Of a stretch of 64,000 nucleotides of DNA, positions 6,131 to 33,158 are shown in pieces. Each line of letters opens with the position of its first letter. Position 1 is the stretch's first letter. The position numbers and the translations under genes are program-made. The notes below the pieces were generated by a model. It was not told where the DNA came from, searched no databases, and was given only the letters and a program-made list of their open reading frames with translations. This DNA comes from TPA_inf: Saccharomyces. Taxonomy: Eukaryota. The stretch is taken from the NCBI GenBank assembly GCA_000146045.2, contig BK006943.2, forward strand, positions 1 through 64,000, in the 5' to 3' direction.

Positions 6131-6749
6131 TTTATTTTTGTAAGTTTCGAAATTAACAATAGTATGTTGATTGTTATGCTTTTTGACAAGAAATCCATCA
6201 ATATAAACAAAAGATTGTCCAGTTTCCGTCTTATCATCATCTAAGAATGTAATAATTAAGCTATTGAGAAGATGCAGAATCTGCGCTATGCAGGTGCAAA
6301 TCTCTAGCAGCAGCAAAGAAAATTCAGTTAATAAGAAATCTCACTAAGATAAGCGACTGTCTGTCCCCTTCAAGCACAACATAGAAAACAGAAGGATGTC
6401 TCATTCATCGCTTGATTTCCGGCCTGCAAAAATAAAGTAGTCGGTACGTACGTTCGTTTTCAATTTCCATGGTGCACAGTATCTTAACTATCTGCTTAGT
6501 CGAGGAGAACCAGGATTCTGTTCGTTGCTCAGCCGCTTCGTGGATATTCTCTTGGATACTTTAAACATGGACCTACGCTTAGCCTGCGCTTAGCCTACAA
6601 CTTCTTCCGCTATCGAAAAGACCAATATAATAAAAAGTTATAAATTACATTTCCTTATTAGGTATACGACCTCGCGCTTCGAAGTAAAGGAGCCCTTTTT
6701 GGCGTACCTACATATGGCGCGTCAGACAGACAACCTTCCCTCAAAATGT

Positions 6750-7770
6750 ATTACCCCGCCGAATAAGAAAACAGACCCATTCACCAACGACGTATCAAGT
6801 TACTTCCTTGATTTGCAATGTCCCACTATAAAAAAATTCCTTAACGCTAGATCTTTGGGCTAAAATCTGCGTCAAACAGGAAATATTGCCTATTTTCGTA
6901 CAAGGTTACTTCCTAGATGCTATATGTCCCTTTACATAATAAATTAAAAAATTTTTTTTATAAATTATAATAATTTCTTTTTATTTCTAATAGTATCTTG
7001 GGATTAAATAAATCACTTACAATATTTATTTTATTATATTGCTTTGTTCAATTAAATTTTAATACGAAATTATTTAATTGTTTTGTATTTAAAATATTTT
7101 GAATAATAAAATAATATAGAGTTTTATTATAAATTTTTCATTGATATTTAATAAATAAAGATTTCCAGCATACAGCACATAAAATATTAATTACATATGT
7201 AATTAATAATAAGGCCATATTTTGACCCTGCCATTACCCTACCATGCCCCATCTGTTACTCACTATACTGTTGTTCTACCCAACATATTGAAATGTTAAC
7301 AAATGATCGTAAATAATACACACATACTTACCCTACCACTCTAATCCCACCACCACATGCCACACTCACCCTCACTTGTATACTGATATGCCATACGCAC
7401 ACGGATGCTACAGTATATACCATCTCAACTTACCCTACTCTCATATTCCACTCCACTCCACGGCCCATTCTCACTAAATCAGTATAAATGCACTCACATC
7501 ATTATGCACGGCACTTGCCTCAGCGGTCTATACCCTGTGCCATTTACCCATAAAGCCCACGATTATCCACATTTTAATATCTATATCTCATTCGGCGGCC
7601 CCAAATATTGTATAACTGCCCTTAATACATACGTTATACCACTTTTTCACCATATACTAACCACTTAATTTATATACACTTATGCCAATATTACATAAAA
7701 ATCACCACCAAAATCACCTAAACATAAAAATATTCTATTCTTCAACAATAATACATAAACACATTGGCTT
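6750..7770. repeat. X element region (combinatorial repeats plus core X); boundaries approximate
   Basis: Non-coding AT-rich segment followed by degenerate C/A-rich telomere-like motifs (accctacca, cccaccaccaca, cactcaccctcac at about 7220-7460) and an ARS consensus match near 7720. Its position between the Y' element and the first unique gene fits the organisation of an X element. Confidence 0.4.
7719..7729 (-). promoter_or_regulatory. ARS consensus sequence match (TTTTATGTTTA) at the proximal end of the X core
   Basis: Reverse complement of plus-strand taaacataaaa is an 11/11 match to WTTTAYRTTTW. X cores characteristically carry an ACS. Confidence 0.35.
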
Positions 7771-8775
7771 GAAGTATGAGCACTATCATGGTATCACTAA
7801 CTTAAAAGATCCTTAATATTGCAATTTGCTTGAACGGATGCCATTTCAGAATATTTCGTACTTACACACACCTGACATTACAATAATATGCCACCTCACT
7901 GTCGTAACACTCTTTATTCACTGAGCTATAATACGGTAGTGGCTCGCACTCATGCGGGGGCTATGATACAATTGTATCCTATTTCCATTCCCATATGCTA
8001 ACCGCAACATCCTAAAAGCATAACTGATGCATCTTTAATCTTGTATGTGACACTACTCATACGAAGAGACTATATCTGAACAAGACGATACTGTGATAGG
8101 TACGTTATTTAATAGGATCTATAACGAAATGTCAAATAATTTTACGGTAATATAACTTATCAGCGGCGTATACTTAAACGGACGTTACGATATTGTCTCA
8201 CTTCATCTTACCACCCTCTATCTTATTGTTGATAGAACACTAACCCCTCAGCTTTATTTCTAGTTACAGTTACACAAAAAACTGTGCCAACCCAAAAATT
8301 TTGATATTTTACGTGTCAAAAAATGAGGGTCTCTAAATGAGAGTCTGATACCATGACTTGTAGCTCGCACTGCCCTGATCTGCAATCATGTTCTTAGAAG
8401 TGGCGCATATTCTATACGGCCCGACGCGACGCGCCAAAAAATGAAAAAAGAAGCAGCGACTCATTTTTATGGAAGGACAAAGTGCTGCGAAGTCATACGC
8501 TTCCAATTTCATTGTTGTTTATTGGACATACACTGTTAGCTTTATTACCGTCCACGCTTTTTCTACAATAATGTAAAAGTTTCTTTCTATGTTTATCATA
8601 TTCATAAAATGCTTCACGAACACCGTCATTGATCAAATAGGTCTATAATATTAATATACATTTATATAATCTACGGTATTTATATCATCAAAAAAAAGTA
8701 GTTTTTTATTTATTTTATTTTGTTCGTTAATTTTCAATGTCTATGGAAGCCCGTTCGTAAAATTGGCGTTTGTCT

Positions 8776-9138
8776 CTAGTTTGCGATAGTGTAGATACCG
8801 TCCTTGGATAGAGCACTGGAGATGGCTGGCTTTAATCTGCTGGAGTACCATGGGACACCGGTGATCATTCTGGTCACTTGGTCTGGAGAAATACCAGTCA
8901 ACATGGTGGTGAAGTCACCGTAGTTGAAAACGGCTTCAGCAACTTCGACTGGGTAGGTTTCAGTTGGGTGTGCGGCTTGGAACATGTAGTATTGGGCCAA
9001 GTGAGCTCTGATATCAGAGACGTAGACACCCAATTCAACCAAGTTGACTCTTTCGTCAGATTGAGCTAGAGTGGTGGTTGCGGAAGCAGTAGCAGCGATG
9101 GCAGCGACACCAGCAGCGATTGAAGTTAATTTGACCAT
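8776..9138 (-). CDS. PAU1: Seripauperin (PAU family cell-wall mannoprotein), 120 aa
   Basis: 120-aa ORF starting at an [50 protein letters not shown]..., the diagnostic PAU/seripauperin sequence. Subtelomeric position. Confidence 0.9.
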
Positions 9139-11343
9139 TGTATTTGTTTTGTTTGTTAGTGCTGATATAAGCTTAACAGGAAAGAAAAGAATAAAGACAT
9201 ATTCTCAAAGGCATATAGTTGGAGCAGCTCTATTTATACCCGTTCCTCCATCTGTCATCATTACTTAAACGATTCGTTAACAGATGCTCATTTAGTACCT
9301 CACATATTCTCCATATCTCATCTTTCACACAATCTCATTATCACTATGAAGATGTTCTTGTTTTTGAACGAATCATACATCTTTGATAGACTTCGTATGT
9401 GGAGTATTGTTTTATGGCACTCATGTGTATTCGTATGCGCAGAATGTGAGAATGCCAATTATAGGGGTGCCGAGGTGCCTTGAAAAACCCTTTTGCGCGC
9501 CTGCGAAGTTTCCATTTTCGGTCAAAAAGAATATCCGAATTTTAGATTTGGACCCTCGTACAGAAGCCTATTGTCTAAGCCTAAATTCAGTCTGCTCTAA
9601 ACGGCTTCCATGCAAGAAATATTTCTATCTCTTGAATTCGTACAACATTAAACGTGTGTTGGGAGTCGTATACTGTTAGGGTCTGCAAATATGTAAACTC
9701 TCGGCGAATGCCTTGGTGCAATTACGTAATTGTAGCCGCTGAAGGCGGATGGTATTGAGAGAAGTTGATATTCAAAGAATCTTGTATGATAAAAATAAAA
9801 TTGTAACCAGTTCGTAGTAGCAGTATTAAAACTTTGCACAGGGGGAAATATTTGATTCCGAGATGTATTCCCCCTTTTCTAGTCAGATATGAAGGAAAAA
9901 AGTGTAAGGGCAATAGATGGCGCTAATTTGTTCTATTCTATTCTAAAAACGTTTTCTAGGAAAAATATATTAATAGTTGATACTCCTTGTAATTTCTAAG
10001 TCAAAAGAAATGTCTCTATCTTTATCGTAACGGCTCATCGTTAGAGCTCAATTGTGCCTCTTGGATGTATTTCCAAAGTTCCACGTTTAATAACCCAGCC
10101 AACACAGATTCCTTTGAGAACAAATGGCTACCAAAGTTTCATTCAAATAAGCCTGACAATCAACCCCATCAAAGAGGAGCTCTTTGTTTTTCCAAACCCA
10201 TGAGAAAAAAATACAGTTCCTTTTCCATACCAAAAAATGAAGAAGAAATCATGTGCTGAGAGTTGCCTGCAGTCGTAGAAGTTTACGATCCTAACCCATT
10301 ATGTGATTCGTTGTGAGTCACCCTTCCATGATTATGTGTCCTTACTACCTACTATCCAATTACTACATATGTTTTGAACTCATATGTACCAAGCACCTAA
10401 AATTACGCACCCATTTCCATTGGCAAAGACTTGACGAAATTTAATACACTGCAATAATATCCAGCGATACTCTTCAAGAATTCCCGCCTATAATGGCGGC
10501 TCGCTGTCCGAAAGATTGCGCCGCACTTGACTGCTTCTTACACTCCTTTTTCCCAGGCGATAAACAGACTAAGCGGAAACTACGATATAATGCAGTAGAG
10601 GTCCCCCAAGAGCTGGAAAGAAAATATTAGTTTGATAGCCAGCACTATTCCATCCAGTGGGTTCTTGTACCATTTTCTGTGGTATGGCTTTGATTCAACT
10701 GCATACGTAGTTAACGCGATCAGCCGCACATGTCCATTATCATTTTCAGGGGTACTGGTAAACCCTATTGTTTAGAAAGAATATCTGGTAAGCGGGTCTG
10801 TCGAGTCTTCACTTCCTTCATACACATTTTATTGAGTAAATTATACTTAGATCCGGAATCATAACGTTGGAAAAGGAGACAAGGTTGGATAAGTTATGTA
10901 GGCGTATTTCAATAAGACGTATATGATTTAGTCTAAGAAACCGACGTATCTAGCCAGCATTCGCACTATGACGACAGTTTAACGTCGTATTGAGCAGCAT
11001 CAACTGAATATAATGAAAAAAAAAAAATCATTCCTTGAAATTCGTTCTTCCGAAAACTGCTCAAGGTGATAGCACCTCAAGAACAATTCTTCGTTTGAAT
11101 TTATTATCAAATTCATCACCGTCAGAGTTATAAGTTGCACTGTATTCCTGGTGACCCTAGTAACCCAAAATACCATTTTCTGATTTTGCAATCATATTTA
11201 TTGGCTTTAGCGAACATATGATCACCATACTATCTTGATGGTTGACCAAGAAGCGAACATCTTCGAACCAAAGTCACCGAATCTCAAGGAATGCAAAATT
11301 CGTGGCTCAGTGCTCTCAAGACAATGTTGCAACCCTTTGCGTC

Positions 11344-11474: not shown

Positions 11475-14400
11475 ATGGCATTGTTTCGTGCCCTGTATAT
11501 TATTTGGGTATTCCTACTCATTCCACTGTCCAATGCAGAAGAATTCACCCCCAAGGTTACCAGAACTTTGTCAAGATATGTATTCGATATAGTAAACTTT
11601 GATGATTCAAACACTTTGATCAGAGCAGAAGAAGACTCTGTCGAGATAAGTTTTGATGCTGGAGAAAATTGGAAAACAATAGATGAGATTGAAGAGCCTA
11701 TCGAGTCATTTGTTGTTGATCCCTTCCGTGGGCATGATAGAGCTTTTGCTTTCGTGAAAACGGCACCAAAATTTTACGTCACGGATGATCAAGGTAAATC
11801 GTGGAGGCCTTTGACTATACCCATTTCTGAGAAAGCATCGAATTATTTTTGCGACGTAACTACTCACCCTATAAAAAAGAAGCATCTTATTATTCGTTGT
11901 GATTTGTTGACAATAAAAAACTCAGGCTTAATGTATGTTGGAAGAGAGATTTACACAACTAATGATGGAGTATCCTTTTCCCAAGTTAAACCTTCTTTTG
12001 GAAAAATTGATGGTCATATTAGCACGGCACGCTGTGACTTTATTAAATCTAGTGAGGATTCTGATCTGGGCGGTAATGATGCTTCGATACTCTGTCTTTT
12101 CCGAAACACTGAGTACATTGAAAGTACAGGCTCAACTATTGACAAGTCTGAATTGATTTTAAGTGCCGATGGAGGTGAAACATTCAAAGAATTAGTCCAG
12201 TTCAAAGATAAGGTTGTTAGTCGATACGAGATACTTAAGCATCATGTGATCGTTTTGACACAAGATGATATGTATAATGAAATGTCATCAACAAACATTT
12301 GGATATCCAATGATGTATCCACTTTTCAAGTGGCTCGTACACCTACTAAGATACGGCACGTTAATATGGGACAAATTCATGAAGATTCCATCGGAAGAAT
12401 CGTTTTACCTGTATCTAGAGAAAGAGATGATGAAGACAGCAACCAACCGGGAGCTGCTGAAGTGTTAATATCAGATTCTGAAGGACTAAAATTTTTGCCT
12501 ATAAATTGGATACCAAACAATCAGTTTGGATATATCAATGTAGCTTATCCAGGTTTCTTAAAAGGAACATTTTTTGGTTCGTTTCATCCCTTCATTGAAT
12601 ATTCTGATAGAAAAAGGAAATACAGCCGACAGAAAGTAAGAGAGGAAACTAAAGTATCTGTTGATAACGGTCTCACATGGACAAACTTGAAAGTTGTTGA
12701 CCGGGAAAATGTAGATTTATTTGGTTGTGATGTCACTAAACCCGAGAGATGTTCGCTTCAGACTCATTTCTATGATCTAAGAAATTTAAATCCCTCTGCC
12801 GGAATCATGATGATATCGGGTATTGTTGGCGACGGCAGTGCATACAATTGGAAAGAAGAAAAAACTTTCATCTCCAGGGATAGTGGTTTAACATGGAGGT
12901 TAGTCCATAATTCCACTGGTTTATATACTACTGGTGATCTGGGAAATATTATCATGTATATTCCATATCGTTCGAATGAAAATGGCGATGTGCCTTCTAA
13001 ATTTTATTATTCCTTGGATCAAGGTAAGACATGGGGTGAATATGATCTAATCATGCCTATTTATCCATACAGATTAGTCAGCACAATATCAGATGGATCT
13101 GGTTCAAAATTTATTCTAACAGGAACGTCCATTACAGAAGATCCAATATTCATTACATATTCAATTGATTTTTCAGCGGTATTTGATTATAAATCATGTG
13201 AAGAGGGTGATTTTGAAGATTGGAATCTAGCAGATGGAAAATGTGTTAATGGCGCCAAATACAAGTACAGAAGGAGGAAACAGGACGCCCAGTGTTTGGT
13301 AAAAAAAGCATTCAAAGATTTGAGTTTAGATGAAACGCCTTGTAACAGTTGTACTGGATCCGACTACGAATGTTCGTTTGAATTCGTTAGAGATGCGAAG
13401 GGTGACTGTATACCAGATTATAATCTGATTGCCCTTTCCGATATATGTGACAAATCGAAGGGTAAATCTGTGTTAGTAAAGCCACTACAATTAATCAAAG
13501 GTGATAAATGTAAAACACCTATGAAAATTGAATCCGTAGACATTCCGTGTGACGAAATTCCAAAGGAGGGTTCGAGTGACAAGGAAATAGTGACTACTGA
13601 AAACAAATTCGACTTTGAAATTAAATTTTACCAATACTTCGATACAGTTGCCGACGAATCTTTGGTCATGCTGAATTCGATAGGAGACGCCTATATATCC
13701 CACGATGGTGGACAAACGATAAAAAGGTTTGACACTGACGGCGAAAAAATTGTCGAAATCGTGTTTAACCCATACTTCAATTCTTCAGCATATTTGTTTG
13801 GCTCTAAAGGTAACATATTCTTAACACACGATAGAGGATACTCTTTCATGATAGCTAAATTACCTGAAGCCAGGCAATTAGGCATGCCACTAGATTTTAG
13901 TGCTAAAGCACAGGATACTTTTATTTACTATGGTGGTAAGAATTGTGAATCAATTTTAAGTCCAGAATGTCATGCAGTGGCATACCTCACCAAAGATGGG
14001 GGTGAAACTTTTACAGAAATGCTTGATAATGCAATTCATTGTGAGTTTGCAGGAACACTATTCAAATATCCGTCAAATGACGATATGGTTATGTGCCAAG
14101 TAAAGGAAAAGTTTTCGCAAACAAGAAGTTTAGTTTCTTCTACTGACTTTTTCCAAGATGATAGAAAAACTGTCTTTGAAAACATTATCGGCTACTTGTC
14201 TACTGGTGGCTATATCATTGTTGCCGTACCTCATGAAGACAATGAATTGAGGGCGTATGTAACTAATGATGGTGCTGAGTTTACCGAGGCAAAATTCCCA
14301 TATGATGAAGATATTGGTAAGCAAGACGCATTCACTATTTTAGGATCTGAGGAAGGATCAATATTTTTACATTTAGCAACAAACTTGGAATCAGGACACG

Positions 14401-16124
14401 ATTTCGGAAACCTTTTGAAATCCAACTCGAATGGTACTTCTTTTGTCACCTTAGAGCATGCCGTTAATAGAAACACATTCGGTTATGTGGACTTTGAAAA
14501 AGTTCAAGGTCTTGAAGGTATTATTATCACCAACATCGTTTCGAATAGCGAAAAGGTTGGCGAGAACAAGGAAGACGAACAATTGAAGACGAAAATCACC
14601 TTCAATGACGGTTCAGATTGGAACTTTTTGAAGCCTCCAAAGAAGGATTCGGAAGGGAAAAAGTTTCCCTGTGATTCTGTGTCATTAGATAAATGTTCTC
14701 TACATTTGCATGGTTACACTGAACGTAAGGATATCAGGGATACATATTCCTCTGGCTCCGCGTTAGGAATGATGTTTGGTGTCGGAAATGTTGGCGATAG
14801 GCTTCTACCATATGAGGAGTGTTCCACTTTTCTAACCACTGATGGAGGAGAGACGTGGACTGAGGTTAAAAAAGGCCCCCATCAATGGGAGTACGGTGAT
14901 CATGGTGGAGTCTTGGTTTTGGTCCCCGAAAACGCAGAAACTGATTCTATTTCTTACTCCACCGATTTTGGTAAAACATGGAAAGATTATAAATTCTGTG
15001 GCGACAAAGTCCTCGTAAAGGATATAATCACCGTTCCCAGAGATTCTGCTTTGAGGTTTTTGCTATTTGGAGAAGCAAAAAACATGGGTAGTGGTTCATT
15101 CAGAACGTATACAATTGATTTTAGAAACATCTTCGAGAGGCAATGTGAGTTTGATATTACCGGTAGAAAAAGGGCAGATTTTAAGTACTCTCCTCTGGGT
15201 TCCAGAACTGGTTGTTTGTTTGGCCATAAAACAGAATTTTTACGTAAAACCGATGAAAAATGTTTTATTGGGAATATTCCACTTTCTGAATTTTCGAGGA
15301 ACGTCAAAAACTGTCCATGTACAAGACAAGATTTCGAATGTGACTATAATTTTTATAAAGCCAGTGATGGTACTTGTAAATTAGTCAAAGGCTTAAGTTC
15401 GGCGAATGGTGCCGATATCTGCAAAAAGGAACCCGACTTAATTGAATACTATGATTCCTCCGGCTATCGGAAAATTCCCTTATCAACCTGTAAAGGTGGG
15501 CTGAAATTGGATGCACATTTAGCACCACATCCTTGTCCGGGAAAAGAAAAGGCATTCAGGGAAAAATACTCTATAAACACCGGCGCTTATGCGCTGGTTT
15601 TTGTTACAATTCTTCTCGTTATTTTCTTTGTCGCATGGTTTGTATACGATAGAGGTATCAGGAGAAATGGGGGATTTTCAAGATTTGAAGAAATCAGATT
15701 AGGAGACGATGGGCTGATAGAAAACAATAGGACCGATAGAGTTGTCAACATCATTGTAAGACTAGGATTATGCATTTCTTTAATCACCAAGTCTGCGTTT
15801 CAACGCGCGAAGGCAGGTACAGCGCAACTTTCTTCAAAATTTAGGGCAAGGTTTGGCAACAAAAAAGGTGCCACTTACTCTTCGCTGCTTCATGATCAGC
15901 TTTCAGATGAACCAGATGGCTTCCATGAAGATTCCAACGATTTATCCAGTTTCAGAGGTCAAGGTAGTAATTCTGAAATTGAGCAAGAAGATGTTGACAC
16001 ATCTCAACAAGAGCATACGTCGCGGACAGACCTACTTGGTGCTAGCAATATTCCAGACGCTTTGCCAGCGCGTAGTGCTTCTCACGAGTCCGATTTAGCA
16101 GCTGCACGCAGCGAAGACAAGTAG
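11475..16124 (+). CDS. VTH2: Vps10/sortilin-family membrane sorting receptor, 1549 aa
   Basis: 1549-aa ORF with an N-terminal signal peptide ([21 protein letters not shown]) and more than 10 BNR/Asp-box motifs (SxDxGxTW: [63 protein letters not shown]). It has a C-terminal TM segment ([20 protein letters not shown]) and cytosolic tail. Length matches VTH1/VTH2. Confidence 0.9.
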
Positions 16125-16766: not shown

Positions 16767-18536
16767 TCATTCAGATATGTAAATTCTGCCCTCCCATGGC
16801 TTCAATGTTCTGGAAGACGCATCAACTTCACTTCTTGGGTAGTTTCCGAATTCCAACTTAAACGATGAGCTATTGTTTGGAATCGTGAAGTCGATCGAAT
16901 CAGAGCTGAAGTTCAAAGCAGCAAACAATGTTTTGTTGTCGTATTTCTTTGTGAAGCTGAACAGTTTCTTATTGTCCAAATCAATAAACTCAAAATCATA
17001 TCCATACACAGTAATATCCTTGTGTGCCTTTCTAAATCTCAAGGCCTCCTTCCAGAAGTTCAAAACCGAGTTGGGGTCCTTGGATTCGTCTTCAGCGTTA
17101 ATTCCTTCCCTGAAAGACTCGTTCAAGTAAAACCATGGTTTAGCATTAGGACCAGAAAAACCAGCATTTGGCTCCTCACGAGACCATTGCATAGGTGTTC
17201 TAGCATGGTCTCTGGAAATAAGGGCAATTGCTTCCAAAAACCTCTTCATCTCCTTCGAGTTTTCTCCATGCTCTTCCTTGATCGCATCATAGTTATTTCT
17301 AACTTCGACATCCTCGTATTTTTCGATAGGCCAGTTCTTGAAATTGATTTCACCCAGTTCCTGTCCTTGGTACACATATAGAGTACCGCTCAGTGACACC
17401 AACAACACAGACAACAACTTACCAGAAATAACACGGTTTTTGGGAGAATCGTCACCAAATCTGGTAATTGAACGAGGTTGGTCGTGATTTTCCAGATAAA
17501 TTGTTGACCAACAATCAGTTCCGTTAACGTATCTGAAAAGTTCAGCAAGGGCAACCTTCCAATCCTTTAGTTCATATGGTATCAAATTTTGACGGAACTT
17601 GGGCGAAGTCCCGACATCAGTGTGGGAAAAGTTGAATAACTCACTAAGTTCGTGTCTTGACGCACTTGTATACAACCTCTTGGTCTCATCAGTAGCATGT
17701 CGCATTTCACCAACTGTCATAATTTCTCTGCCATCCTTCACTCTGTTTCTGATGAACTTGTTCATTTCTTGATGAAACTCATGGATACGTGGTCCGTTCA
17801 TTGTGAAAGGATCACTGAGTTGCCACTTTGAGTTTTCGTCAATCACAGGAGCGTCTGGTAGACCAGCAACCTTGGAGTACAAGCTTCCCACATCAATTCT
17901 AAAGCCGTCTACACCATGGTCTAACCAGTATCCAACGGCACTTTCGTAGATTGCCTTTCTGCAGTCTTCGTTCTCCCAGTTTAGATCAGGTTGGGTGGAG
18001 CAAAACAAACGCAAGTAAAACTCTTGTGTCTTTTCATCGAACGTCCATGCAGAACCACCGAAGTAAGACCTCCAATTGTTTGGAGGAATTGGCTTGCCTT
18101 CGGCGTCATAACCCTTAGGAGGTCTCCAGAAGAACCAGTCACGTTTTGGATTGGTTTTTGAGGATCTGCTCTCTTTGAACCATTCATGTTCGCTGGAGCA
18201 ATGGTTGATGACTAAGTCGGTGATAAATTTCATACCAAGCTTATGTGTCTTTTCGATCAAGGCAAAGCAGTCCTCGTTCGTACCGTAGGTTGGCCAGACC
18301 TTTTCGTAGTTGGCAATATCGTAACCCATATCATCTTGTGGCGAGTCGTAAAATGGCGAGATCCAAATGGCATCGGTACCAAGCTCTTTGATGTACTCCA
18401 ACTTGGAGGCAATACCCTTCATATCACCCCAACCATCGTTGTTGGAGTCTTTGAAACTTGCGGGATAAATTTGATAAATTGTGGCCTCTTTCCACCACTT
18501 GGGTTCTGTTTCTGGATGTGCAGAAGAAATAGTCAT
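16767..18536 (-). CDS. IMA4: Oligo-1,6-glucosidase (isomaltase), GH13 family, 589 aa
   Basis: ATG start verified. GH13 catalytic motifs [16 protein letters not shown] and [11 protein letters not shown]-terminus [30 protein letters not shown] is typical of yeast IMA/MAL alpha-glucosidases. 589 aa. Confidence 0.9.
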
Positions 18537-18947
18537 TGTACGTTGCTTTCTTATCTCTATGAAAAAACTTTCACTTTTGTTTGTGTGTTTGGATTGGTGA
18601 ATGGAACATATATTCTAGTACAGCTAATTCCTCGAGTGAAGAAGTCTTCCTTACTTATATATGTCTGTGGACGTCTTACGAATGATCGAAAATAAGAAAA
18701 GAACAAAGTAAATTTAGGATCTGGAAGGAGTGCTGTATGTAAACGAAGCTTTCAGTTTTAGGTAATGTTTGCACAACCTACATGATATAAGATGGTATGT
18801 TCTGCAACAGCGTGCCTGTCACTTGGCCCGTTATAGCAGATTATACCATCTGCAAGCAGACCCCATTATTGCATTGCCTCCGCAGCCTTGCGTATACATA
18901 GCCCTAAGACAAAATACGGAGCGTAAACAACCCTCGATCCCCGCAAC

Positions 18948-19017
18948 AATTACATAACCATTTCTCCGCGGAATTACATAATCATTTCTCCGGGAAAATT
19001 ACATAATCATTTCTCCG
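18948..19017. repeat. Three tandem 21-bp units AATTACATAA(C/T)CATTTCTCCG with 3-4 nt spacers, in the HXT9 upstream region
   Basis: Seen directly: units at 18948-18968, 18972-18992 and 18997-19017. Confidence 0.85.
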
Positions 19018-19362
19018 TGCGAGTTATAAGTGCTTTTCTCGTGCATTTCCCTGACACTTCACAAAACCTTCTTTTTCTTTTTTCTTTATTTCAGGGGAAA
19101 TCAGTGCAAAACTAAAAAGAAAGAAATTTTGTGAAATGTAAACTCCAGGTGTCAAAAAATAAATTATATCCGTGGAAAATCAGGCGTCGGAAATTGTAGA
19201 TGAATCCGCCTCCTCCACAATAAAAATGCTGACCACACGAGCAATGCATACACTCGGACACCTTCGTTCAAAGTATCAGTAGCAGTTCGACACACCCTAT
19301 ACTACTTAGCTCTTAAGGTCTAGGCTCATCTTTCTCAGTTCCTCTTTTTCGCTAAATAAAGG

Positions 19363-19369
19363 TATATAA
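19363..19369 (+). promoter_or_regulatory. TATA element (TATATAA) about 128 bp upstream of the HXT9 ATG
   Basis: ggtatataatg seen directly, at an appropriate distance upstream of the ORF start. Confidence 0.3.
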
Positions 19370-19496
19370 TGTCACAGCTGTGTAACTAAAGAACACTGTT
19401 GTTCCTATCTTTTTCTTCTTCTTTTTTTGGTATGAGTTGGAAAAAATAATCATTGCACAATTGAGTACTAAAAGCTTTCGTATCTTACCCAATATC

Positions 19497-21200
19497 ATGT
19501 CCGGTGTTAATAATACATCCGCAAATGATTTATCCACTACCGAGTCTAACTCTAACTCAGTAGCAAATGCACCATCTGTAAAAACTGAGCATAATGACTC
19601 TAAAAACTCCCTCAACCTGGATGCCACTGAACCACCTATTGACTTACCTCAAAAACCCCTCTCTGCATATACCACCGTCGCAATCCTGTGTTTGATGATT
19701 GCATTTGGCGGCTTCATCTTTGGTTGGGATACCGGTACCATTTCTGGTTTTGTTAACCTTTCTGATTTCATCAGAAGGTTCGGTCAAAAAAATGACAAGG
19801 GAACCTACTACTTATCGAAAGTAAGAATGGGTTTGATCGTCTCAATATTCAACATTGGCTGCGCCATAGGCGGAATTGTCTTGTCAAAAGTCGGTGATAT
19901 ATATGGTCGTCGTATTGGATTGATTACAGTTACTGCCATTTACGTTGTAGGCATCCTAATCCAAATAACTTCCATAAACAAGTGGTACCAATACTTCATT
20001 GGAAGAATTATTTCTGGCCTAGGAGTGGGAGGCATTGCTGTCCTTTCCCCAATGTTGATATCTGAAGTTGCTCCCAAACAAATCAGAGGAACCCTGGTCC
20101 AATTGTACCAGCTGATGTGTACGATGGGTATTTTTCTAGGATACTGTACCAATTACGGTACCAAGAACTATCACAACGCCACTCAATGGAGAGTCGGCCT
20201 TGGTCTTTGCTTTGCCTGGACTACATTCATGGTTAGTGGAATGATGTTTGTACCAGAATCACCACGTTACCTGATTGAGGTTGGTAAAGATGAGGAAGCG
20301 AAACGTTCACTTTCGAAATCCAACAAAGTCTCAGTCGACGATCCAGCCTTGTTAGCAGAATATGACACTATAAAGGCGGGAATCGAACTTGAAAAGCTGG
20401 CAGGTAACGCATCATGGTCTGAACTACTCTCCACTAAAACAAAGGTCTTTCAGCGTGTTCTCATGGGAGTGATGATCCAATCGCTGCAGCAATTAACCGG
20501 TGATAACTACTTCTTTTACTACGGCACCACCATCTTCAAATCTGTCGGTCTAAAGGACTCCTTTCAGACTTCGATCATTATCGGTGTGGTTAATTTTTTC
20601 TCTTCATTCATAGCGGTATACACCATTGAGAGGTTTGGACGCCGTACGTGTCTATTGTGGGGTGCTGCTTCTATGCTATGCTGCTTTGCTGTGTTTGCCT
20701 CCGTCGGTGTGACAAAGTTGTGGCCTCAAGGAAGCAGTCACCAAGACATTACTTCTCAGGGCGCCGGTAACTGTATGATTGTGTTTACTATGTTCTTCAT
20801 TTTTTCGTTCGCCACCACTTGGGCAGGCGGCTGTTACGTTATTGTCTCAGAGACGTTTCCTCTTAGGGTCAAATCAAGAGGAATGGCAATCGCAACAGCT
20901 GCAAACTGGATGTGGGGTTTCCTGATTAGTTTCTTTACCCCATTCATTACCGGGGCAATCAACTTTTACTACGGTTATGTATTCTTAGGCTGTCTGGTTT
21001 TTGCATACTTTTATGTCTTTTTCTTTGTCCCAGAAACAAAAGGCCTGACGCTGGAGGAGGTGAATACTATGTGGCTGGAAGGTGTGCCAGCATGGAAATC
21101 AGCCTCATGGGTGCCACCAGAAAGAAGAACCGCAGATTACGATGCTGACGCCATAGACCATGACGATAGACCAATCTACAAGAGGTTCTTTTCCAGCTAA
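19497..21200 (+). CDS. HXT9: Hexose transporter, MFS sugar porter family, 567 aa
   Basis: First ATG is at 19497; the ORF-track start at 19437 is TTG. 12-TM sugar porter with PESPRYL and [11 protein letters not shown] signatures. Length is 567 aa. Confidence 0.88.
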
Positions 21201-21889
21201 TCTTCCGGTTTTTAGTAACTGGAAAAAAATACATGAACTTAATTATTTATTATATACAATATTTACTTTTTTACGCCTTAATCCTTAACGGACTATTTGT
21301 TATGCCTTATAGAACTAGAAATTATATGATAAACATGAGCTACACGAGTTGACAGGGTGAACAGATTACTATAGCATCTTTCTCTCATGAATAATTTTTA
21401 AAATGTATAAATTTTGTAACGTTCCGAAGGGTGGAGTGAAATTCCATTCAAGAAACCAAGCATTGAGACAGAACAGTACAGAGTTCAGTTGTTGCGGACC
21501 GAGAATTGTAACAAGTAGCCCCAGAAACATTCATATGACGTCTGTTTCAAATTAAGCTTAGTAAAAGTACACATTTACCATAAAAAAATAGTACCAAGTC
21601 GGTGGCCTGATATCCTTATTTTCCTTCTGCCAATTGGGCAAGTTGGTACTAATATTTTAGGTGACACTGCCACTTTATTGTTATGGATTGAAATTTCTTA
21701 AATGTTCTCACAATCGGCCATAACGCTATTTCTCCGACGTAACCTCCTGTCATAGTGTGCCGTGCCTGAATAACTTAAAAAATTAAAGTTTTCAATGTGC
21801 CCAAAAAAATTCACAAATAGTACGCGCTCGTTAAACACCCTGTGACGCTGGGCCAGGCACTATTTAGCATTACTTCGAAAAGACGCAAG

Positions 21890-21972: not shown

Positions 21973-22563
21973 ATGGGCGTATTAGAAAATATAGTACCTG
22001 GTGAGCTTTATGATGCGAACTATGATCCAGATCTTTTGAAAATTAGAAAAGAGACTAAAATAAAATTGCACGAATACAACACCCTTAGCCCCGCTGATGA
22101 GAATAAAAAGAGCCAGGTAATAAGAGAATTACTTGGTAGTTGCACTGATAACTTTATAATTGAACCGCCGTTTTACTGTGATTACGGAAGTAACATCTAT
22201 ATCGGAGACAACTTTTACGCCAATCACAATCTTGTTATATTGGATGGGGCCAAGGTAGTCATCGGTGACAACGTATTTATCGCCCCTAATGTTGGTATTT
22301 ATACGGCAGGTCATCCAATTGACGTGGAAAGACGGCTTCAAGGATTAGAATATGCCATGCCTGTGACCATTGGAGACAATGTATGGATTGGAGGTGGAGT
22401 GTCAATAATTCCTGGAGTAAATATAGGTAAAAACTCCGTGATTGCCGCCGGTAGTGTTGTGATTCGTGACATACCAGAAAATGTAGTGGCAGCAGGTAAT
22501 CCTTGTAAGGTGATAAGAAAGATCACTGAAAAAGATAGTACAACTACAAACTATCGAAAATGA
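21973..22563 (+). CDS. YJL218W: Hexapeptide-repeat (left-handed beta-helix) acetyltransferase, maltose/galactoside O-acetyltransferase family, 196 aa
   Basis: Tandem hexapeptide repeats (IGDNVFIAPNVGIYTAGH, VTIGDNVWIGGGVSIIPGVNIGKNSVIAAGSVV). Size and N-terminal region are typical of bacterial Mac/LacA-type acetyltransferases. Confidence 0.85.
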   Translation: MGVLENIVPGELYDANYDPDLLKIRKETKIKLHEYNTLSPADENKKSQVIRELLGSCTDNFIIEPPFYCDYGSNIYIGDNFYANHNLVILDGAKVVIGDNVFIAPNVGIYTAGHPIDVERRLQGLEYAMPVTIGDNVWIGGGVSIIPGVNIGKNSVIAAGSVVIRDIPENVVAAGNPCKVIRKITEKDSTTTNYRK

Positions 22564-23132
22564 TGGATCCACTTTCTGGAGGAATTATCGAAAGCAAGTG
22601 TTGTCTTCTATGATTATGTACCGTATTTTCTTATAAGAATAAATAAAAAGCTAGTTCAGTTTTAGTCGACTAAATACGCAGAGAGATTATTAATTATTGG
22701 TATATGTTCTGGTTTAAGTTGCTCATTCTCAACTCGACTGTGTATAGTAGCTTCTTTCTGGTATAATCTATCTTCGAGGAGAAAATTATAGTTTACAACT
22801 TATGTAAAACTGCTCAAGTTCCAACCGTATAGAAAACGCGTGGCTGGTAGCTTTATGTTCGGATTTGAGAAATTTTCGGGGAAATAAGTACCGTTCTAAT
22901 TTTTCAGCGCAAATTAACATGCGGAGAAACTTTAAACTGAAAATATGGCCACCTGCATGCGTCCATATGAAAGGGTCATCAAATAGCCTCGAACAAAACA
23001 AGTAACATTTTCGATGGAGTTAGAAAGGGATGATCCTATACGCACAGATTTCCTAGGTATTTAACCTGACCTAATATTAACAAAAGTCCAAGTGACGGCT
23101 TCTCCATCAAACAAGATAAATTACCAAACACA

Positions 23133-23729
23133 ATGGTCGAATCTAAGAATACTGAATTATCGCAAGGAACATGGCTCAATAAGCCAAAATCTGTTTTTCA
23201 AGAGGCAGGAAAAGTCACTCTGGAAACAGATGAAAAAACTGACTTTTGGCGTGAAACATTTTACGGATTTACCCGTGATAGCGGTCATTTTTTGGGAGTA
23301 GAGACAGGTAGTGCTTTTACTGCACAAGTCCGTGTTCAGGGAAGCTACGAGAGTCTTTATGATCAGGCTGGTATCATGGTTCGTATAGATGATGGACATT
23401 GGCTCAAAGCTGGCATAGAAATTTCTGATGGCCACGCAATGCTAAGCAGTGTTTTGACAAATGGAAAATCAGATTGGTCAACTGCTGTTTATGGCGGAAA
23501 TGCTCGCGATTTCTGGCTTCGTGTTACTGTTGAAAAGGGCGTTTTGAGGATTCAGGTGTCCTCTGATAAAAAAACATGGCCGTTAGTACGTTTGGCTCCA
23601 TTTCCAACTTCTGACCATTACCTTGTTGGACCAATGGCTTGCACACCTGAGCGTGGCGGATTGAAAGTTACTTTCTCGGAATGGAGTCTCACAGCTCCTT
23701 TAGGAAAAGCTTTACATGATTTGAGTTAG
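23133..23729 (+). CDS. REE1: Small cytoplasmic protein (REE1, regulator of enolase expression), 198 aa
   Basis: 198-aa ORF with ATG start at the position expected from chromosome X gene order. Sequence MVESKNTELSQGTWLNKPK... Confidence 0.75.
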   Translation: MVESKNTELSQGTWLNKPKSVFQEAGKVTLETDEKTDFWRETFYGFTRDSGHFLGVETGSAFTAQVRVQGSYESLYDQAGIMVRIDDGHWLKAGIEISDGHAMLSSVLTNGKSDWSTAVYGGNARDFWLRVTVEKGVLRIQVSSDKKTWPLVRLAPFPTSDHYLVGPMACTPERGGLKVTFSEWSLTAPLGKALHDLS

Positions 23730-24340: not shown

Positions 24341-26086
24341 TTACTTCAACAAGTAAAGTCTTCCTTCCCATGGCTGCAAGGTGCGGGAATCACCATTTGA
24401 GTTTGCATAGTTGCCAAAAAACATGGTGTAGGAGGCCTCATTATCAGGAACTGAAAAGTCCGTATTATCGCTACTGAAATTGAAAACAGCAAACATTTTT
24501 TTGTTATCTGTGTCCTTTGTAAACATGAATAGCTTGTCATTATCAAGATCAATGAACTGAAAGTTATGTCCATAAACAAGGATATCTTTGTGCTCCTTTC
24601 TAACTTGTAAGGCCTTTTTCCAGAAAAAGAAGACTGAGTTTTTATCTTTTAACTCAGCTTCTGCGTTGATTCCGTCTCTAAATGATTCATTCATGTCAAT
24701 CCATGGTTTGGCATCCTTCGAGAAACCTGCAGAAGGCTCATCAGCACTCCATGGGAATGGTGTTCTCCCATGATCTCTAGAGATCAAAGCTAATGCTTCA
24801 AAAAACTTTTTCATCTTTTCAGAATCTTCACCATAATCACGTTTAATGGCGGCATATGTACCAGTACCTTCAACGCATTTGATTTGCTCAATTTTTCTGT
24901 TTTTGAAGTTGGGCATACCCAATTCTTGTCCTTGGTAGATAAAAACAGTACCAGTCAATGAAATGATGAGAGTAGCCAACATCTTGGACGAAATCTCACG
25001 CCATTTAGGAGAATCTGAGCCAAAACGCGAAACGCTACGAGGTTGATCATGATTCTCCAAATAGATGGTCGACCAGCAATCTGTGTTTTCGATAAACAGA
25101 AAGCTTTCAGCAAGAGCCAGCTTAAAGTCTTTTAAAGTAAAGGGAATAAGTTCGTACTTGCATTTTGGGTTTTCACCTACTGAGGTGTGCTTGAAGTTGA
25201 ACATCATATTTAGTTCTCCTTCTTTGGCACTGGTATAAACTCTGAAGTCGTCTTCATTCCCGATACCAACTTCTCCAACAGTCATGATTTCTTTACCCTC
25301 TGGAACTTGCGAGAGCATGTAGTTATGCATTTCTTTATGATACTCATGGATACGTGGCCCATTTATGAAAAATTCAGTTCCTTTTTGGTAAGGAACTGTA
25401 GGATCAGTGATAGGAGCATCGGGTAGGCCCTCAACCTTAGAATACATGCTGCCTACGTCAATACGAAAGCCATCAACGTTGTGACGTAGCCAATAGCCCA
25501 CTGAGGAGTCATAAATGGCTTTACGGCACTCTTCATTTTCCCAATTGAAATCAGGTTGGCCAAGAGCAAACACATGCAGAAAGAACTCACCAGTTTTTTC
25601 GTCATATCTCCAAGCAGATCCACCAAAGAAAGATCTCCAATTGTTGGGAGGAATTGGATTACCTTTCTCATCGTAACCCTTTGGAGGTCTCCAGAAAAAC
25701 CAGTCACGCTTTGGATTAGCCTTAGAAGATCTACTCTCCTTGAACCATTCATGCTCTTCAGAACAGTGGTTGATAACCAGGTCAACAATAACCTTGATAC
25801 CTCTCTTATGAGCTTCTTCTATCATTTGGAAACAATCCTCATTGGTACCGTAACGTGGCCAAACCTTCTCATAGTTGGCAATATCGTAACCCATATCTTC
25901 TTGAGGAGAGTCATAAAATGGGCACACCCATATCGCATCGACACCTAATTCTTTGACATAGTCAAGTTTGGAGGTAATCCCAGCTAAATCACCCCATCCG
26001 TCATTGTTGGAGTCCTTGAAACTAGCAGGATAAATTTGGTAGACGGTGGCTTCTTTCCACCATTTAGGATTATGGATGATCGTCAT
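24341..26086 (-). CDS. IMA5: Alpha-glucosidase / isomaltase paralog, GH13, 581 aa
   Basis: The ORF-track start at 26110 is GTG; first ATG is at 26086 ([37 protein letters not shown]). GH13 motifs [16 protein letters not shown] and [10 protein letters not shown]. Paralogous to IMA4 in this window. Confidence 0.88.
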
Positions 26087-26886
26087 GTTTTTCTTTTCAA
26101 TATTGAGCACTTTCTATATAGTCATCAAGAAACAGTAGTTTTTCGCACCAAGATATGTGAACAAGTGTCCTAATTTATAATTCGTCAGACGTTTATGAAC
26201 TTACTCCTCAAAACCGTATCAATTACCGTAGCGGTAATGGAAGATACAATTCTTAAGTGTGAATTACTTTTTCCGGTGAATTAGCTTCTAGGATTGTGAC
26301 TATTTCAATGGACAATGTTGCAAATAGTTTCAAATATTCCCGTGTTTCTCCGAGGATTCTCCACGGAGGAAAAATAATGCAAAGTTTATTTCCCCGTTTT
26401 CTTTTCTCCGTCTAGGCATTTACGCTTTCACGCAACTTTATTATATCACCTCCGCGGGGATTCAACAACGAGGTATGTGGAGAAGGAGAGAAATTCCAGA
26501 GAAAGCAGCCTAGAGCATCCTGCTGCAGCAACTTATAAACGTATCTCACAGAAAAGGCCGGAGAAAGTTCTTGAAATGTGTAATTTAGCCTACCTGCCAA
26601 GCGGCTGGAATTATCCCGAGAATAATTCCGCGACCGGGCCTGTTCCTGAACTCTAAGAAGTTTTGGAATTTCCGAACGCTTCTTCGCATGAAAGACATGA
26701 ACTCTTAAGTAAAATAATATGAACTGGCATGGTCGTAATCTTTTGGACGACGGAATATCATCGCTAACCATTGTAAGGGATGAAGCTTGACTAGATATAT
26801 TTAAACGACCATTTTTGTTTCATTCTTATTTTAGATTGCATTTTTTATAAGTCACTTTTAGTTAGCTCAGAACGCCAGCAAAAACC

Positions 26887-28596
26887 ATGACTGATCGTAA
26901 AACCAACTTGCCAGAAGAACCGATTTTCGAAGAGGCAGAAGATGATGGCTGCCCTTCGATAGAAAATTCTTCACATCTGTCAGTACCTACAGTGGAGGAA
27001 AACAAGGACTTTTCCGAGTATAATGGGGAAGAGGCAGAGGAAGTTGTTGTTCCAGAAAAGCCTGCTTCAGCCTATGCTACTGTTTCTATCATGTGTTTAT
27101 GTATGGCTTTCGGTGGATTTATGTCCGGTTGGGACACAGGTACGATTTCTGGTTTCGTCAATCAGACTGATTTTTTAAGAAGATTTGGTAATTATAGCCA
27201 TTCCAAGAACACTTACTACTTATCTAATGTGAGAACTGGGTTGATTGTGTCCATCTTCAATGTGGGAAGCGCCATTGGCTGTCTTTTCTTGTCTAAATTG
27301 GGTGATATTTACGGCCGCTGCATGGGTTTGATTATAGTTATTGTCGTTTATATGGTTGGTATTGTCATTCAAATTGCCTCTATAGATAAGTGGTATCAGT
27401 ATTTTATTGGAAGAATTATCGCTGGTATAGGTGCTGGTTCCATTAGTGTTCTTGCCCCGATGCTTATTTCGGAAACTGCGCCAAAGCATATCAGAGGTAC
27501 GTTGCTAGCTTGTTGGCAATTGATGGTGACTTTCGCAATTTTCTTGGGTTATTGTACCAATTATGGTACCAAGACTTACTCGAATTCTGTCCAGTGGCGT
27601 GTTCCGCTTGGTCTATGTTTTGCATGGGCTATTATTATGATTGGTGGTATGACGTTTGTTCCGGAATCTCCTCGGTTTTTGGTGCAAGTCGGTAAGATTG
27701 AGCAAGCTAAAGCTTCTTTTGCCAAGTCGAACAAGCTTAGTGTTGACGATCCTGCTGTGGTTGCAGAGATTGATCTTCTTGTTGCTGGTGTGGAGGCAGA
27801 AGAAGCAATGGGAACTGCTTCATGGAAGGAATTATTTTCGAGAAAGACTAAAGTTTTTCAACGTTTAACGATGACAGTCATGATTAACTCTCTGCAGCAA
27901 CTAACCGGTGACAACTATTTCTTCTACTACGGTACTACTATCTTCAAATCTGTCGGTATGAATGACTCTTTTGAGACTTCAATTGTCTTGGGTATTGTGA
28001 ATTTTGCTTCTTGCTTCTTTTCACTTTATTCTGTTGATAAGTTGGGCCGTCGTAGATGTCTTTTACTTGGAGCAGCCACCATGACGGCGTGCATGGTTAT
28101 TTACGCCTCCGTTGGCGTCACAAGACTATATCCGAACGGTAAAAGTGAACCATCATCTAAAGGTGCTGGTAATTGTACGATTGTTTTCACGTGTTTTTAC
28201 ATTTTCTGCTTTTCCTGCACCTGGGGACCTGTATGTTATGTGATTATTTCTGAAACATTTCCATTAAGGGTGAGATCCAAGTGTATGTCCGTTGCAACAG
28301 CGGCCAACTTATTGTGGGGGTTCCTAATCGGGTTTTTCACTCCTTTTATTACTTCGGCAATTAATTTCTACTACGGTTACGTTTTCATGGGTTGCTTAGC
28401 GTTTTCATATTTTTACGTCTTTTTCTTTGTTCCAGAAACAAAAGGTCTAACTTTAGAAGAAGTTGATGAGATGTGGATGGACGGTGTATTACCTTGGAAA
28501 TCTGAATCCTGGGTACCAGCTTCTAGAAGGGATGGTGATTATGATAACGAAAAATTACAGCATGACGAGAAACCCTTCTACAAAAGAATGTTTTAG
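26887..28596 (+). CDS. HXT8: Hexose transporter, MFS sugar porter, 569 aa
   Basis: ATG verified. Sugar porter signatures PESPRFL and [11 protein letters not shown]. Close paralog of the HXT9 ORF in the same window. Confidence 0.88.
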
Positions 28597-31500: not shown

Positions 31501-32162
31501 CTACTATCCCTCTTATTCGGATTATCTAGCTTTAACTTCGCCAGTTTTTTCTTGACACACTTCACAGATGATGGTGCCTTCATGTCGGCATGACGCATTA
31601 TCTCCATACTAAAAAATGATCCGACAATATCTCCTTCCTATTTGATCAGCCTCTTATCGTTCGTAAACGACGTAACTTGACGGAGAACGGAGAACTTGTT
31701 GAATAGAGAAGAGTATGTCGGTAATTGATCTCCGATATGAGCGAATATAAAAGCAACATATTTGCTGGTATGTAGCGTAGCTTTTCTTTCCAATTGACGG
31801 GACATCGAAACAGTATATTAACCGAGATAAAAATGACGACTTATCAAATCGATGTCAATGAAGGAATGAACAAGTCCCTGGCCGACTTGGTGGCACCATA
31901 GCGCCCAGAGCCACTCAAAAATTACTGTATAAGTAACACTAATTTGATAGATGTGGTAAGCGGTGTCAGTCTCCTCGGAGCTTACATCTTCATAGAACAG
32001 GGTGTCATTTCCAAGGTCGAATTTGGTTCTGAAAAGCCGGTAACCGTTGATGAAGTTGCCTTTGAAATTATTGACGGCACCGGTAAGTATGTCACTCCAG
32101 GTCTGATCGACAGTCATGTCCACATTGCGTCGGTTGCAGGAGAGGCTGATCTGACCAAGTTA

Positions 32163-33158
32163 ATGCTGATGCCAAAGTCAGTTGCATTACTCAGAATAAG
32201 ATACACTTTGGAAGCCGCTCTGGCAAGAGGTTTCACAACAGTGAGAGACTGTGGGGGTGCAGAAGGCTTTCTGAAAGCAGAGATTCGTCAGGGATCCTTG
32301 AATGGTCCCAGATTAATTACGTGTGGACATGCCATTTCCCAAACTGGTGGTCATGGCGATCTGAGATCTGGTGCCCTACCTGCTAGTGCCTTTGACAGCT
32401 GTTCATGCCACTTTGGTCAAGTTGGTGTTGTAGCAGATGGTGTTCCCGAATGCTACAAAGCGGCCAGAGAAGAGTTTAGAAGAGGTGCAGACTTTATTAA
32501 GATTATGGGTGGTGGAGGTGTGGCCTCTCCAACTGACAAAATATCAAACAAACAATTTTGCGACGACGAAATAAAAGCACTTGTAGATGTCGCAAATAGT
32601 TACCACACATACGTAACAGCACACGCCTACACTGCGGAAGCGATACAAAATTGTATCAAGTTAGGTGTTAAGGGTATCGAACACGGAAACTTATTAGATG
32701 AACGTACCGCAGAGCTTATGGCAGAATTGGGTTGCTACTTGACTCCAACACTAGTTACCTACAAAGTGATGGGTTCTGATCAATTTAGTGCATTCTTGGG
32801 ACCTGAAAATAGTAGAAAAAATACAGAGGTGCTTTACAAAGGAATTGATGCAATGAAAATTGCCCAGAAAAAAAAAGTTAAAATTTGTTTTGGTTCAGAT
32901 TTATTGGGTCCTCTATATGGTTATCAAACGCAAGAGTTTCGTATTAGAGGGAAAGTTCAAACGACACAAGAGATTTTGCTCTCAGCAACTGTTACTCCTG
33001 CCGAAATGAACGGATTAGGCGATAAATTGGGACAGATTAAGCCAGGGTTCATTGCTGACCTACTGATGATGAAATCAAATCCGTTGGACGATATAACGAT
33101 TTTGGATGAACCCGAGAGCAACATACTATTTGTCATGAAAGAGGGAAGGATATATTGA
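32163..33158 (+). CDS. YJL213W: Metal-dependent amidohydrolase-superfamily protein, 331 aa from the first in-frame ATG. The open frame continues upstream to 31902.
   Basis: First ATG at 32163 (MLMPKSV...). Downstream motifs are typical of amidohydrolases (HAYT, GIEHG, ...). The frame is open upstream through 31902 and there encodes the N-terminal beta-sandwich and HxH metal-binding motif (GLIDSHVHI) without an ATG. Confidence 0.8.

Follow-up and report, generated by a model that had tools for sequence, protein, structure and literature searches.

YJL218W and REE1, two old and neighbouring subtelomeric yeast genes of probable bacterial descent

How did two small genes with the appearance of bacterial genes come to lie side by side among the sugar genes at a yeast chromosome end, and do they belong together? 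This question is raised by YJL218W (open reading frame, ORF, A) and REE1/YJL217W (ORF B), which occupy the DNA studied here (the window, 64,000 nucleotides of contig BK006943.2), identified by its gene map as the left subtelomere of Saccharomyces cerevisiae chromosome X. The original prediction had put both forward as candidates for horizontal transfer. The answer that we favour, and regard as probable, is that they are old yeast genes of bacterial derivation that have been domesticated and kept as a linked pair. Overall, the case is an ordinary and largely known one: both genes are annotated, the bacterial origin of REE1 has been in print since 2005, and YJL218W is routinely described as resembling bacterial galactoside acetyltransferases. 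New are the Saccharomycetaceae-wide age of both genes, a caveat on the dating of YJL218W, the conserved linkage of the pair and a parallel operon in Sphingomonadaceae, and they leave one modest new lead.

Two protein families and their bacterial relatives

The description of YJL218W as a 196-aa hexapeptide acetyltransferase of the Mac/LacA type was borne out. The protein matches the Pfam profiles Mac (PF12464; 51.6 bits over residues 10-57, cut-off 22.1) and Hexapep (PF00132; 51.8 bits, cut-off 27). Its AlphaFold2 (AF2) model, computed from a 24-sequence alignment, reaches a predicted local distance difference test score (pLDDT) of 93.6, displays a regular ladder of short strands and superposes on the LacA/Maa crystal structures 1KQA, 1OCX, 3FTT and 2P2O with template modelling (TM) scores of 0.87-0.91 at 45-50% identity. 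Among solved proteins it comes nearest to C. difficile Maa (189 bits) and E. coli LacA (186 bits), followed by the S. aureus galactoside acetyltransferase and E. coli Maa (173 bits), and sequence matches in the Protein Data Bank (PDB) include 3SRT, 1KQA and 1OCX. H114, which lies in a GHPID motif, pairs in the alignment with the histidine of the G-H-P motif of LacA (GHPV) and is invariant across 24 yeast and bacterial Mac sequences; we take its LacA partner to be the catalytic residue His115, and its Maa counterpart to be His113. Judged by profiles and model, ORF A genuinely belongs to the MAT/GAT family, with an N-terminal Mac cap followed by a left-handed beta-helix. Since cap, helix and catalytic histidine occur together, a predicted function as acetyl-CoA-dependent O-acetyltransferase for sugars or glycosides is strongly implied. 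The substrate itself cannot be assigned, because the scores against the NCBIfam profiles for LacA (NF007076; 208 bits) and Maa (NF007499; 205 bits) fall below the respective equivalog cut-offs of 347 and 314. Several proteins of 520-600 aa were also found to hold three tandem Mac-type units, each about 40-44% identical to ORF A.

For REE1, the size of 198 aa had been given correctly, while the statement that it has no obvious domain did not hold. ORF B is 100% identical across all 198 aa to PDB entry 3O12 ('Uncharacterized protein YJL217W') and matches DUF1349 (PF07081) with 218.6 bits (cut-off 32.4) over residues 14-188; it has the concanavalin-like beta-sandwich fold of the solved DUF1349 members and no signal peptide. 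About 80 columns are invariant among 20 yeast and bacterial DUF1349 sequences, including the blocks YGFTRDSGHF, LYDQAGIMVR and VGPMACTPER, and because of this degree of conservation the family looks more like an enzyme than a simple lectin. We know of no DUF1349 member with an established biochemical activity. An N-terminal extension of at least 30 residues is present in 76 of the 111 closest bacterial DUF1349 clusters and contains a twin-arginine motif in 70 of these 76 (for example MQKPQLSRRTILGSAVAL... in the S. trueperi protein), a signal for twin-arginine translocation (Tat) which implies that the proteins of these 70 clusters are periplasmic. The yeast proteins are all short forms that lack the motif; they are cytoplasmic, as is a minority of Rhizobiales forms.

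The bacterial origin of REE1 is strongly supported. Its matches begin with Saccharomyces at 81-99% identity, a Lachancea-like yeast at 74% and Zygosaccharomyces at 71%; from there on they are exclusively bacterial, at 63-72%, with Sphingomonas, Agrobacterium, Acetobacteraceae, Bradyrhizobium, Caulobacter, Xanthomonas and Cystobacter among them. DUF1349 genes whose products are 61-72% identical to REE1 were collected from 80 loci of the Genome Taxonomy Database (GTDB) and 78 bacterial metagenome loci. In a neighbour-joining (NJ) tree of 137 DUF1349 sequences, built without an outgroup, the yeasts form one clade with 100% bootstrap support inside an unresolved proteobacterial radiation, and their distances to many bacterial lineages all lie between 0.42 and 0.46. 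This result agrees with what has been published: REE1 is on the list of bacterial acquisitions (PMC10025432, PMC2715888), and Yuan et al. 2023 name it among the ten genes that they list from Hall et al. 2005; in their HGTphyloDetect analysis it has an alien index of 171, with an out_pct of 1.0. Rolland et al. 2009 reported an orthologue in K. thermotolerans (Lachancea), which points to an older transfer event. In bacteria, DUF1349 occurs in 275 plasmid records and is common on large plasmids of Rhizobium, Sinorhizobium and Agrobacterium; it is carried by the conjugative (MOBQ/MPF_T) A. tumefaciens plasmid pAtAF1_95, so that mobile replicons of plant-associated bacteria harbour the gene.

For YJL218W, bacterial ancestry is well supported, and a transfer specifically into Saccharomycetaceae is likely. 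Its named matches run from Saccharomyces (73-96%) and Lachancea (59-70%) to bacteria (61-69%), among them Pantoea, Sodalis, Cedecea, Cellvibrio, Dysgonomonas, Prevotella and Azobacteroides. The contigs of three further close matches proved to be one yeast and two bacterial, and that of the Sodalis match is likewise bacterial; the members named in three Mac clusters are Torulaspora and bacteria alone. A profile made from 13 yeast Mac sequences ranks bacteria directly after Saccharomycetaceae, and every named match past this family is bacterial. An NJ tree of 257 Mac sequences unites Saccharomyces, Lachancea and Zygosaccharomyces in one clade at 80% bootstrap support, which Torulaspora joins at 34%. 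With non-Mac hexapeptide transferases as outgroups, the yeast Macs fall inside the bacterial Mac diversity in 90% of 500 NJ bootstraps. The search that had been proposed as a check identified bacteria as the closest relatives of both proteins past Saccharomycetaceae, for ORF A by ranking, which is a weak test.

Two observations on the Mac family stand by themselves. Some S. cerevisiae assemblies (e.g. ALI_HP2, on a 1.1-Mb contig) contain a second, much more divergent Mac copy that is 73-77% identical to ORF A, while the copy of S. eubayanus reaches 83%; an old paralogue is one possible source, introgression from a lineage not yet sampled another. In addition, a protein labelled as coming from a nematode (Ditylenchus destructor) shares 61% identity with ORF A and falls in rank between bacterial Macs; either the assembly is contaminated with bacterial DNA or the gene was transferred separately.

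The locus and the age of its two genes

Both ORFs lie exactly where they had been predicted and, as had also been claimed, between duplicated IMA/HXT pairs in a subtelomere (Table 1). From the low-coordinate end, the window contains a Y'-type helicase and a Vps10/sortilin gene, which fit a chromosome end, then an isomaltase/hexose transporter pair, ORF A, ORF B, a second such pair, an amidohydrolase, an OPT transporter and a NUC1-type nuclease. The two pairs (16767-21200 and 24341-28596) each consist of an alpha-amylase-family gene on the minus strand and a Sugar_tr gene on the plus strand; they are real but old duplicates. ORF B lies 569 bp downstream of ORF A, and S. cerevisiae cluster representatives are 96-99% identical to both ORFs. 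In strain ASN_HP1, a gene model of 348 aa in effect splices out the region between the two genes, so that Mac residues 1-177 run straight into REE1 residues 29-198; this is almost certainly an artefact of automatic annotation, and no real fusion protein. The amidohydrolase gene is situated about 8 kb from REE1, and amidohydrolase genes directly adjoin DUF1349 on one bacterial contig (8730-11506) and on one Rhizobium plasmid.

Table 1. Genes and promoter motifs around YJL218W and REE1 (window coordinates)
Feature	Position	Strand	Remarks
Y'-type helicase ORF	466-4980		low-coordinate end of window
Vps10/sortilin gene	11475-16124		low-coordinate end of window
Isomaltase-type alpha-glucosidase, IMA4-like	16767-18536	-	589 aa; 66% identity to ORF 24341-26110
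Hexose transporter, HXT9-like	19497-21200	+	Sugar_tr 588 bits; first ATG 60 nt inside TTG-start ORF
Oleate-response-element (ORE) consensus, CGGN3TNAN9-12CCG	21715-21736	+	about 240 bp upstream of ORF A start; sole consensus match in window
ORF A, YJL218W	21973-22563	+	196 aa; ATG start
Gal4-type site, CGG-N11-CCG	22877-22893	+	between ORFs A and B; about 240 bp upstream of REE1 start
ORF B, REE1/YJL217W	23133-23729	+	198 aa; ATG start
Isomaltase, IMA5-like	24341-26086	-	Pfam Alpha-amylase match; first ATG 8 codons inside GTG-start ORF (24341-26110)
Hexose transporter, HXT8-like	26887-28596	+	64% identity to 19497 copy
Amidohydro_1-family gene, YJL213W-like	31944-33158	+

The idea of a subtelomeric landing zone, taken as one of recent arrivals, failed: both are old, Saccharomycetaceae-wide accessory genes. 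The subtelomeric location itself was borne out in all yeast assemblies that allowed the genes' position to be read. Orthologues of both occur in Saccharomyces, Zygosaccharomyces and Lachancea, and those of Mac also in Torulaspora. The G+C content at third codon positions (GC3) is 0.337 in ORF A and 0.303 in ORF B, next to 0.33-0.49 in the 17 other genes of the window, and the codon-usage fit of both ORFs lies within the range of these neighbours. A comparison of codon usage and GC3 with the neighbours had been suggested as a further check; it revealed no compositional signal of transfer in either gene, as GC, GC3, frequency of optimal codons (Fop) and codon-usage fit all show no anomaly. Taken at face value, this speaks against a foreign origin, but yeast-like composition is what an old transfer would be expected to display and is therefore no argument against the transfer itself.

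The two genes have promoters with different motifs. REE1, which according to its SGD description we take to be under Gal4 control, is preceded by a Gal4-type site; with six such sites in the window and 2.9 expected by chance, a single one is weak on its own. The ORE match upstream of ORF A agrees with the induction of YJL218W by oleate through Oaf1/Pip2, as cited in PMC11522959. The IMA5-REE1-YJL218W-HXT9 block is absent from flor, many wine and S. boulardii strains, and the YJL218W-REE1 block is accordingly dispensable in many strains.

Linkage in yeasts, a bacterial operon and competing explanations

The two genes are neighbours beyond S. cerevisiae. In S. kudriavzevii, the DUF1349 gene follows 744 bp downstream of Mac, both on the plus strand, at the right end of chromosome VII among other neighbours. 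In S. eubayanus, at the left end of chromosome XVI, a REE1 remnant lies 430 bp downstream of Mac; it is a pseudogene (locus positions 9022-9416) with residues 40-102 deleted and two in-frame stops, whereas the adjacent Mac is intact. A MAL-type transporter/regulator/maltase cluster adjoins this locus. The suggested survey of presence and absence across Saccharomyces thus located the pair in three species, in S. eubayanus with a decayed REE1. In Z. parabailii and Z. bailii, Mac and DUF1349 are adjacent in convergent orientation. At spacings of 0.4-1.1 kb, the linkage has been kept since the split of Zygosaccharomyces and Saccharomyces, across three subtelomere relocations. A ureidoglycolate lyase gene was seen near DUF1349 both in S. 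meliloti (locus 2447-4558), two genes away, and in Z. parabailii (17131-17727), at about 6.5 kb; this proximity is probably a coincidence.

The same two families are paired in bacteria. At 48 of the 80 GTDB loci and 41 of the 78 metagenome loci, the DUF1349 stop is followed after 4-26 nt by the start of a Mac-type gene on the same strand; the 48 GTDB cases all belong to Sphingomonas or Novosphingobium. A TetR gene stands in divergent orientation at 87 of these 89 loci, and a gene for an Acyl_transf_3 membrane protein comes next in 30. On an S. parapaucimobilis plasmid, RefSeq gives the corresponding order: a TetR gene and, divergently, DUF1349, sugar O-acetyltransferase and acyltransferase. 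Where the bacterial DUF1349 protein bears a Tat signal, its Mac partner has none. A GH31 gene beside the S. trueperi operon raised the possibility of a link with alpha-glucosidases, which we discarded because it occurs in only 2 of the 89 loci. Our literature search found no description of a DUF1349-acetyltransferase operon or of its yeast pairing.

Two independent DUF1349/Mac pairings suggest a functional partnership. Against this stands the explanation that the adjacency has no functional meaning, the two being unrelated accessory genes about 0.5 kb apart in a recombining subtelomere and the Sphingomonas operon a coincidence, and we hold it to be almost an even proposition. Several observations weigh on its side and against the partnership. 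The adjacency that suggests a functional link is limited to one bacterial and one yeast family, and it was not found in six other bacterial contexts (Agrobacterium pAt, R. etli p42e, Klebsiella, S. meliloti, Deinococcus and Burkholderia). Among yeasts, L. nothofagi, a Lachancea-like yeast and T. delbrueckii have Mac with no DUF1349 within 8-10 kb; Mac is subtelomeric in the first and last of these, and in the Lachancea-like yeast it shares its contig with core housekeeping genes. The decay of REE1 beside an intact Mac in S. eubayanus and the two promoters with their different motifs also fit an accidental neighbourhood. The probability that the family of a yeast neighbour matches some family of bacterial neighbours by chance is in the order of a few percent, a rough estimate rather than a computed statistic, and is not negligible. 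Chance is harder to reconcile with an operon that recurs at 89 loci with such tight spacing and a dedicated TetR regulator, with a linkage that outlasted the yeast split and the relocations, and with the presence of both YJL218W and REE1 in the oleate-induction clusters of Smith et al. In the L. nothofagi (locus 6730-7842) and T. delbrueckii (4251-5345) subtelomeres, a DIOX_N/2OG-Fe(II) oxygenase gene lies about 2-5 kb from Mac, which hints at another conserved neighbourhood in yeasts that lack the REE1 linkage.

Somewhat unlikely, in our estimate, is a second explanation, according to which REE1 is the sole true transfer and YJL218W has been inherited vertically within a long-established lineage of fungal Macs, which may itself go back to bacteria in the very distant past; its bacterial look would then result from a family that evolves slowly in bacteria and fast in yeasts. 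Harrison et al. 2024 list the KEGG family K00661 in 790 of 1086 (about 73%) budding yeasts (PMC11522959), and according to Riccombeni et al. 2012 the family member orthologous to YJL218W is orf19.7437 in C. albicans, with CORT0C03620 (PMC3338533); this spread and the claimed Candida orthologue may reflect an older fungal origin with vertical descent. YJL218W was not flagged by HGTphyloDetect, as it is not among its 23 candidates. The identities within the yeast Mac family (49-64%) are no higher than those between yeasts and bacteria, which speaks for strong rate differences. Saccharomyces Mac has an identity of 0.58 to Torulaspora and 0.61 to Zygosaccharomyces, no closer than the 0.61 that it shares with Gammaproteobacteria and Bacteroidota and that these phyla share with each other; the yeast copies thus evolve faster than the bacterial ones, and the ranking of matches cannot date the transfer of YJL218W. 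Torulaspora Mac (55-58% identity) is itself ranked under many bacterial proteins. The bacterial look of a gene from a family so common in budding yeasts should hence be read with caution. Nor are the trees beyond reproach as support for transfer: they are neighbour-joining trees on about 190 columns, those of Mac contain no fungal sequence from outside Saccharomycetaceae, the nominal sister group of the yeast Macs (Pantoea/Brenneria/Cellvibrio) has 22% support, as has that of the yeast DUF1349 clade (Agrobacterium), and yeast Mac monophyly reaches only 38% in a reduced set. Vertical descent has to contend, however, with a yeast-only profile that places more than 90 bacterial clusters above any named fungus outside Saccharomycetaceae, with the nesting of yeast Macs among bacterial ones in the rooted bootstraps, and with the bacteria-to-yeast transfer of the same family that has been shown elsewhere, for C. 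orthopsilosis CORT0E04740. The claim that YJL218W is a transfer candidate is backed by its high identity to bacterial Macs and, more tentatively, by its nesting among them; its entry may predate Saccharomycetaceae.

Finally, the joint arrival of both genes as one bacterial DUF1349-Mac operon fragment, later split into two yeast transcription units, would account for their adjacency in Saccharomyces and Zygosaccharomyces, for the tight operon of the same family pair in Sphingomonadaceae and for the fact that few bacterial sequences come nearer to the yeast REE1 clade than DUF1349 proteins of pair-bearing Sphingomonas, but it is improbable, as the operon Macs are a separate subfamily (36-46% identical to YJL218W, 98-100% bootstrap support for their own clade, 0 of 500 bootstraps grouping them with yeast), DUF1349 is missing next to the bacterial Macs most similar to YJL218W (65-69% identity), none of the 158 bacterial REE1-like loci (80 GTDB and 78 metagenome) holds a YJL218W-like Mac, order and orientation in both yeasts are unlike those of the operon, and the Lachancea genes are unlinked.

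The reading that we prefer, descent of both genes from bacteria followed by domestication as a linked pair, would run as follows. Entry would have occurred at or before the base of Saccharomycetaceae, most likely with a separate donor for each gene: REE1 would derive from a DUF1349 gene of proteobacteria, probably of alphaproteobacteria, and YJL218W from a 'standard' bacterial maa-type gene as found in Gammaproteobacteria and Bacteroidota. Both genes would since have become fully domesticated, with yeast base composition, separate yeast promoters (one ORE-like, the other Gal4-like) and no bacterial export signal, and the two-gene block would have moved between subtelomeres. The acetylation of poorly metabolised sugars is a role proposed for LacA and Maa in bacteria. 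In its neighbourhood of alpha-glucoside and hexose uptake, YJL218W might similarly acetylate imported sugars or glycosides of which the cell can make little metabolic use, and REE1 would be a cytosolic, very highly conserved protein with a carbohydrate-type fold.

Both families occur in a translationally coupled, TetR-controlled operon in Sphingomonadaceae, so that the yeast proteins plausibly act on the same small molecule. One may go further and consider the yeast pair and the Sphingomonadaceae operon, with or without its Acyl_transf_3 gene, to be versions of one two-component module, a tentative notion which we think more doubtful than not. In such a module, the DUF1349 protein would recognise or process, and Mac then acetylate, one compound, for example a glycoside or a xenobiotic, and the yeast pair would have been put together, or kept, out of components of bacterial origin. 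If this were true, it would provide the first functional handle on the DUF1349 family and REE1, and it would mean that a bacterial gene partnership was rebuilt in a eukaryote from the genes of different donors. Even short of this, the Sphingomonas TetR operon and the yeast linkage suggest that the two proteins have a substrate in common, and they could help to reveal what DUF1349 and REE1 do.

Comparison with known systems

The transfers described by Hall, Brachat & Dietrich 2005 (URA1, BDS1, BIO3/BIO4 and others) include YJL217W, whereas YJL218W is not among the eight names recovered from their ten-gene list, and our search of the literature found no claim of its transfer. Common to YJL217W, YJL218W and the published transfers are a subtelomeric or accessory location, a patchy distribution and bacterial nearest relatives. 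Within the MAT/GAT family, the closest parallel is C. orthopsilosis CORT0E04740 (Riccombeni et al. 2012), which came from Bacteroidetes and is 68% identical to a bacterial protein; like YJL218W it is a bacterial acetyltransferase in a yeast, but it represents an independent and much more recent event in another yeast clade, its site is internal and syntenic, and the sister species has it as a pseudogene.

At the protein level, YJL218W resembles E. coli LacA and Maa in size, in the succession of Mac cap and left-handed beta-helix and in the aligned catalytic histidine. It differs from them in scoring under both equivalog cut-offs and in being a eukaryotic gene behind an ORE-bearing promoter, not a member of a lac or mal operon. 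For DUF1349, structures have been solved for S. cerevisiae YJL217W (3O12) and Pectobacterium ECA2234 (3MEP), and the yeast form is set apart from 70 of the 111 closest bacterial clusters by its lack of the twin-arginine export signal.

As a pair, the two genes invite comparison with the bacterial siderophore operon that Wickerhamiella/Starmerella yeasts have reportedly acquired, a case attributed to Kominek et al. 2019. In both instances, bacterial-derived genes lie next to each other in a yeast, and their families are operonic in bacteria. The window pair should nevertheless not be classed as a transferred operon: YJL218W and REE1 appear to come from different types of donor, the Mac of the bacterial operon belongs to another subfamily, and the order and orientation of the two genes in yeast differ from those in the operon.

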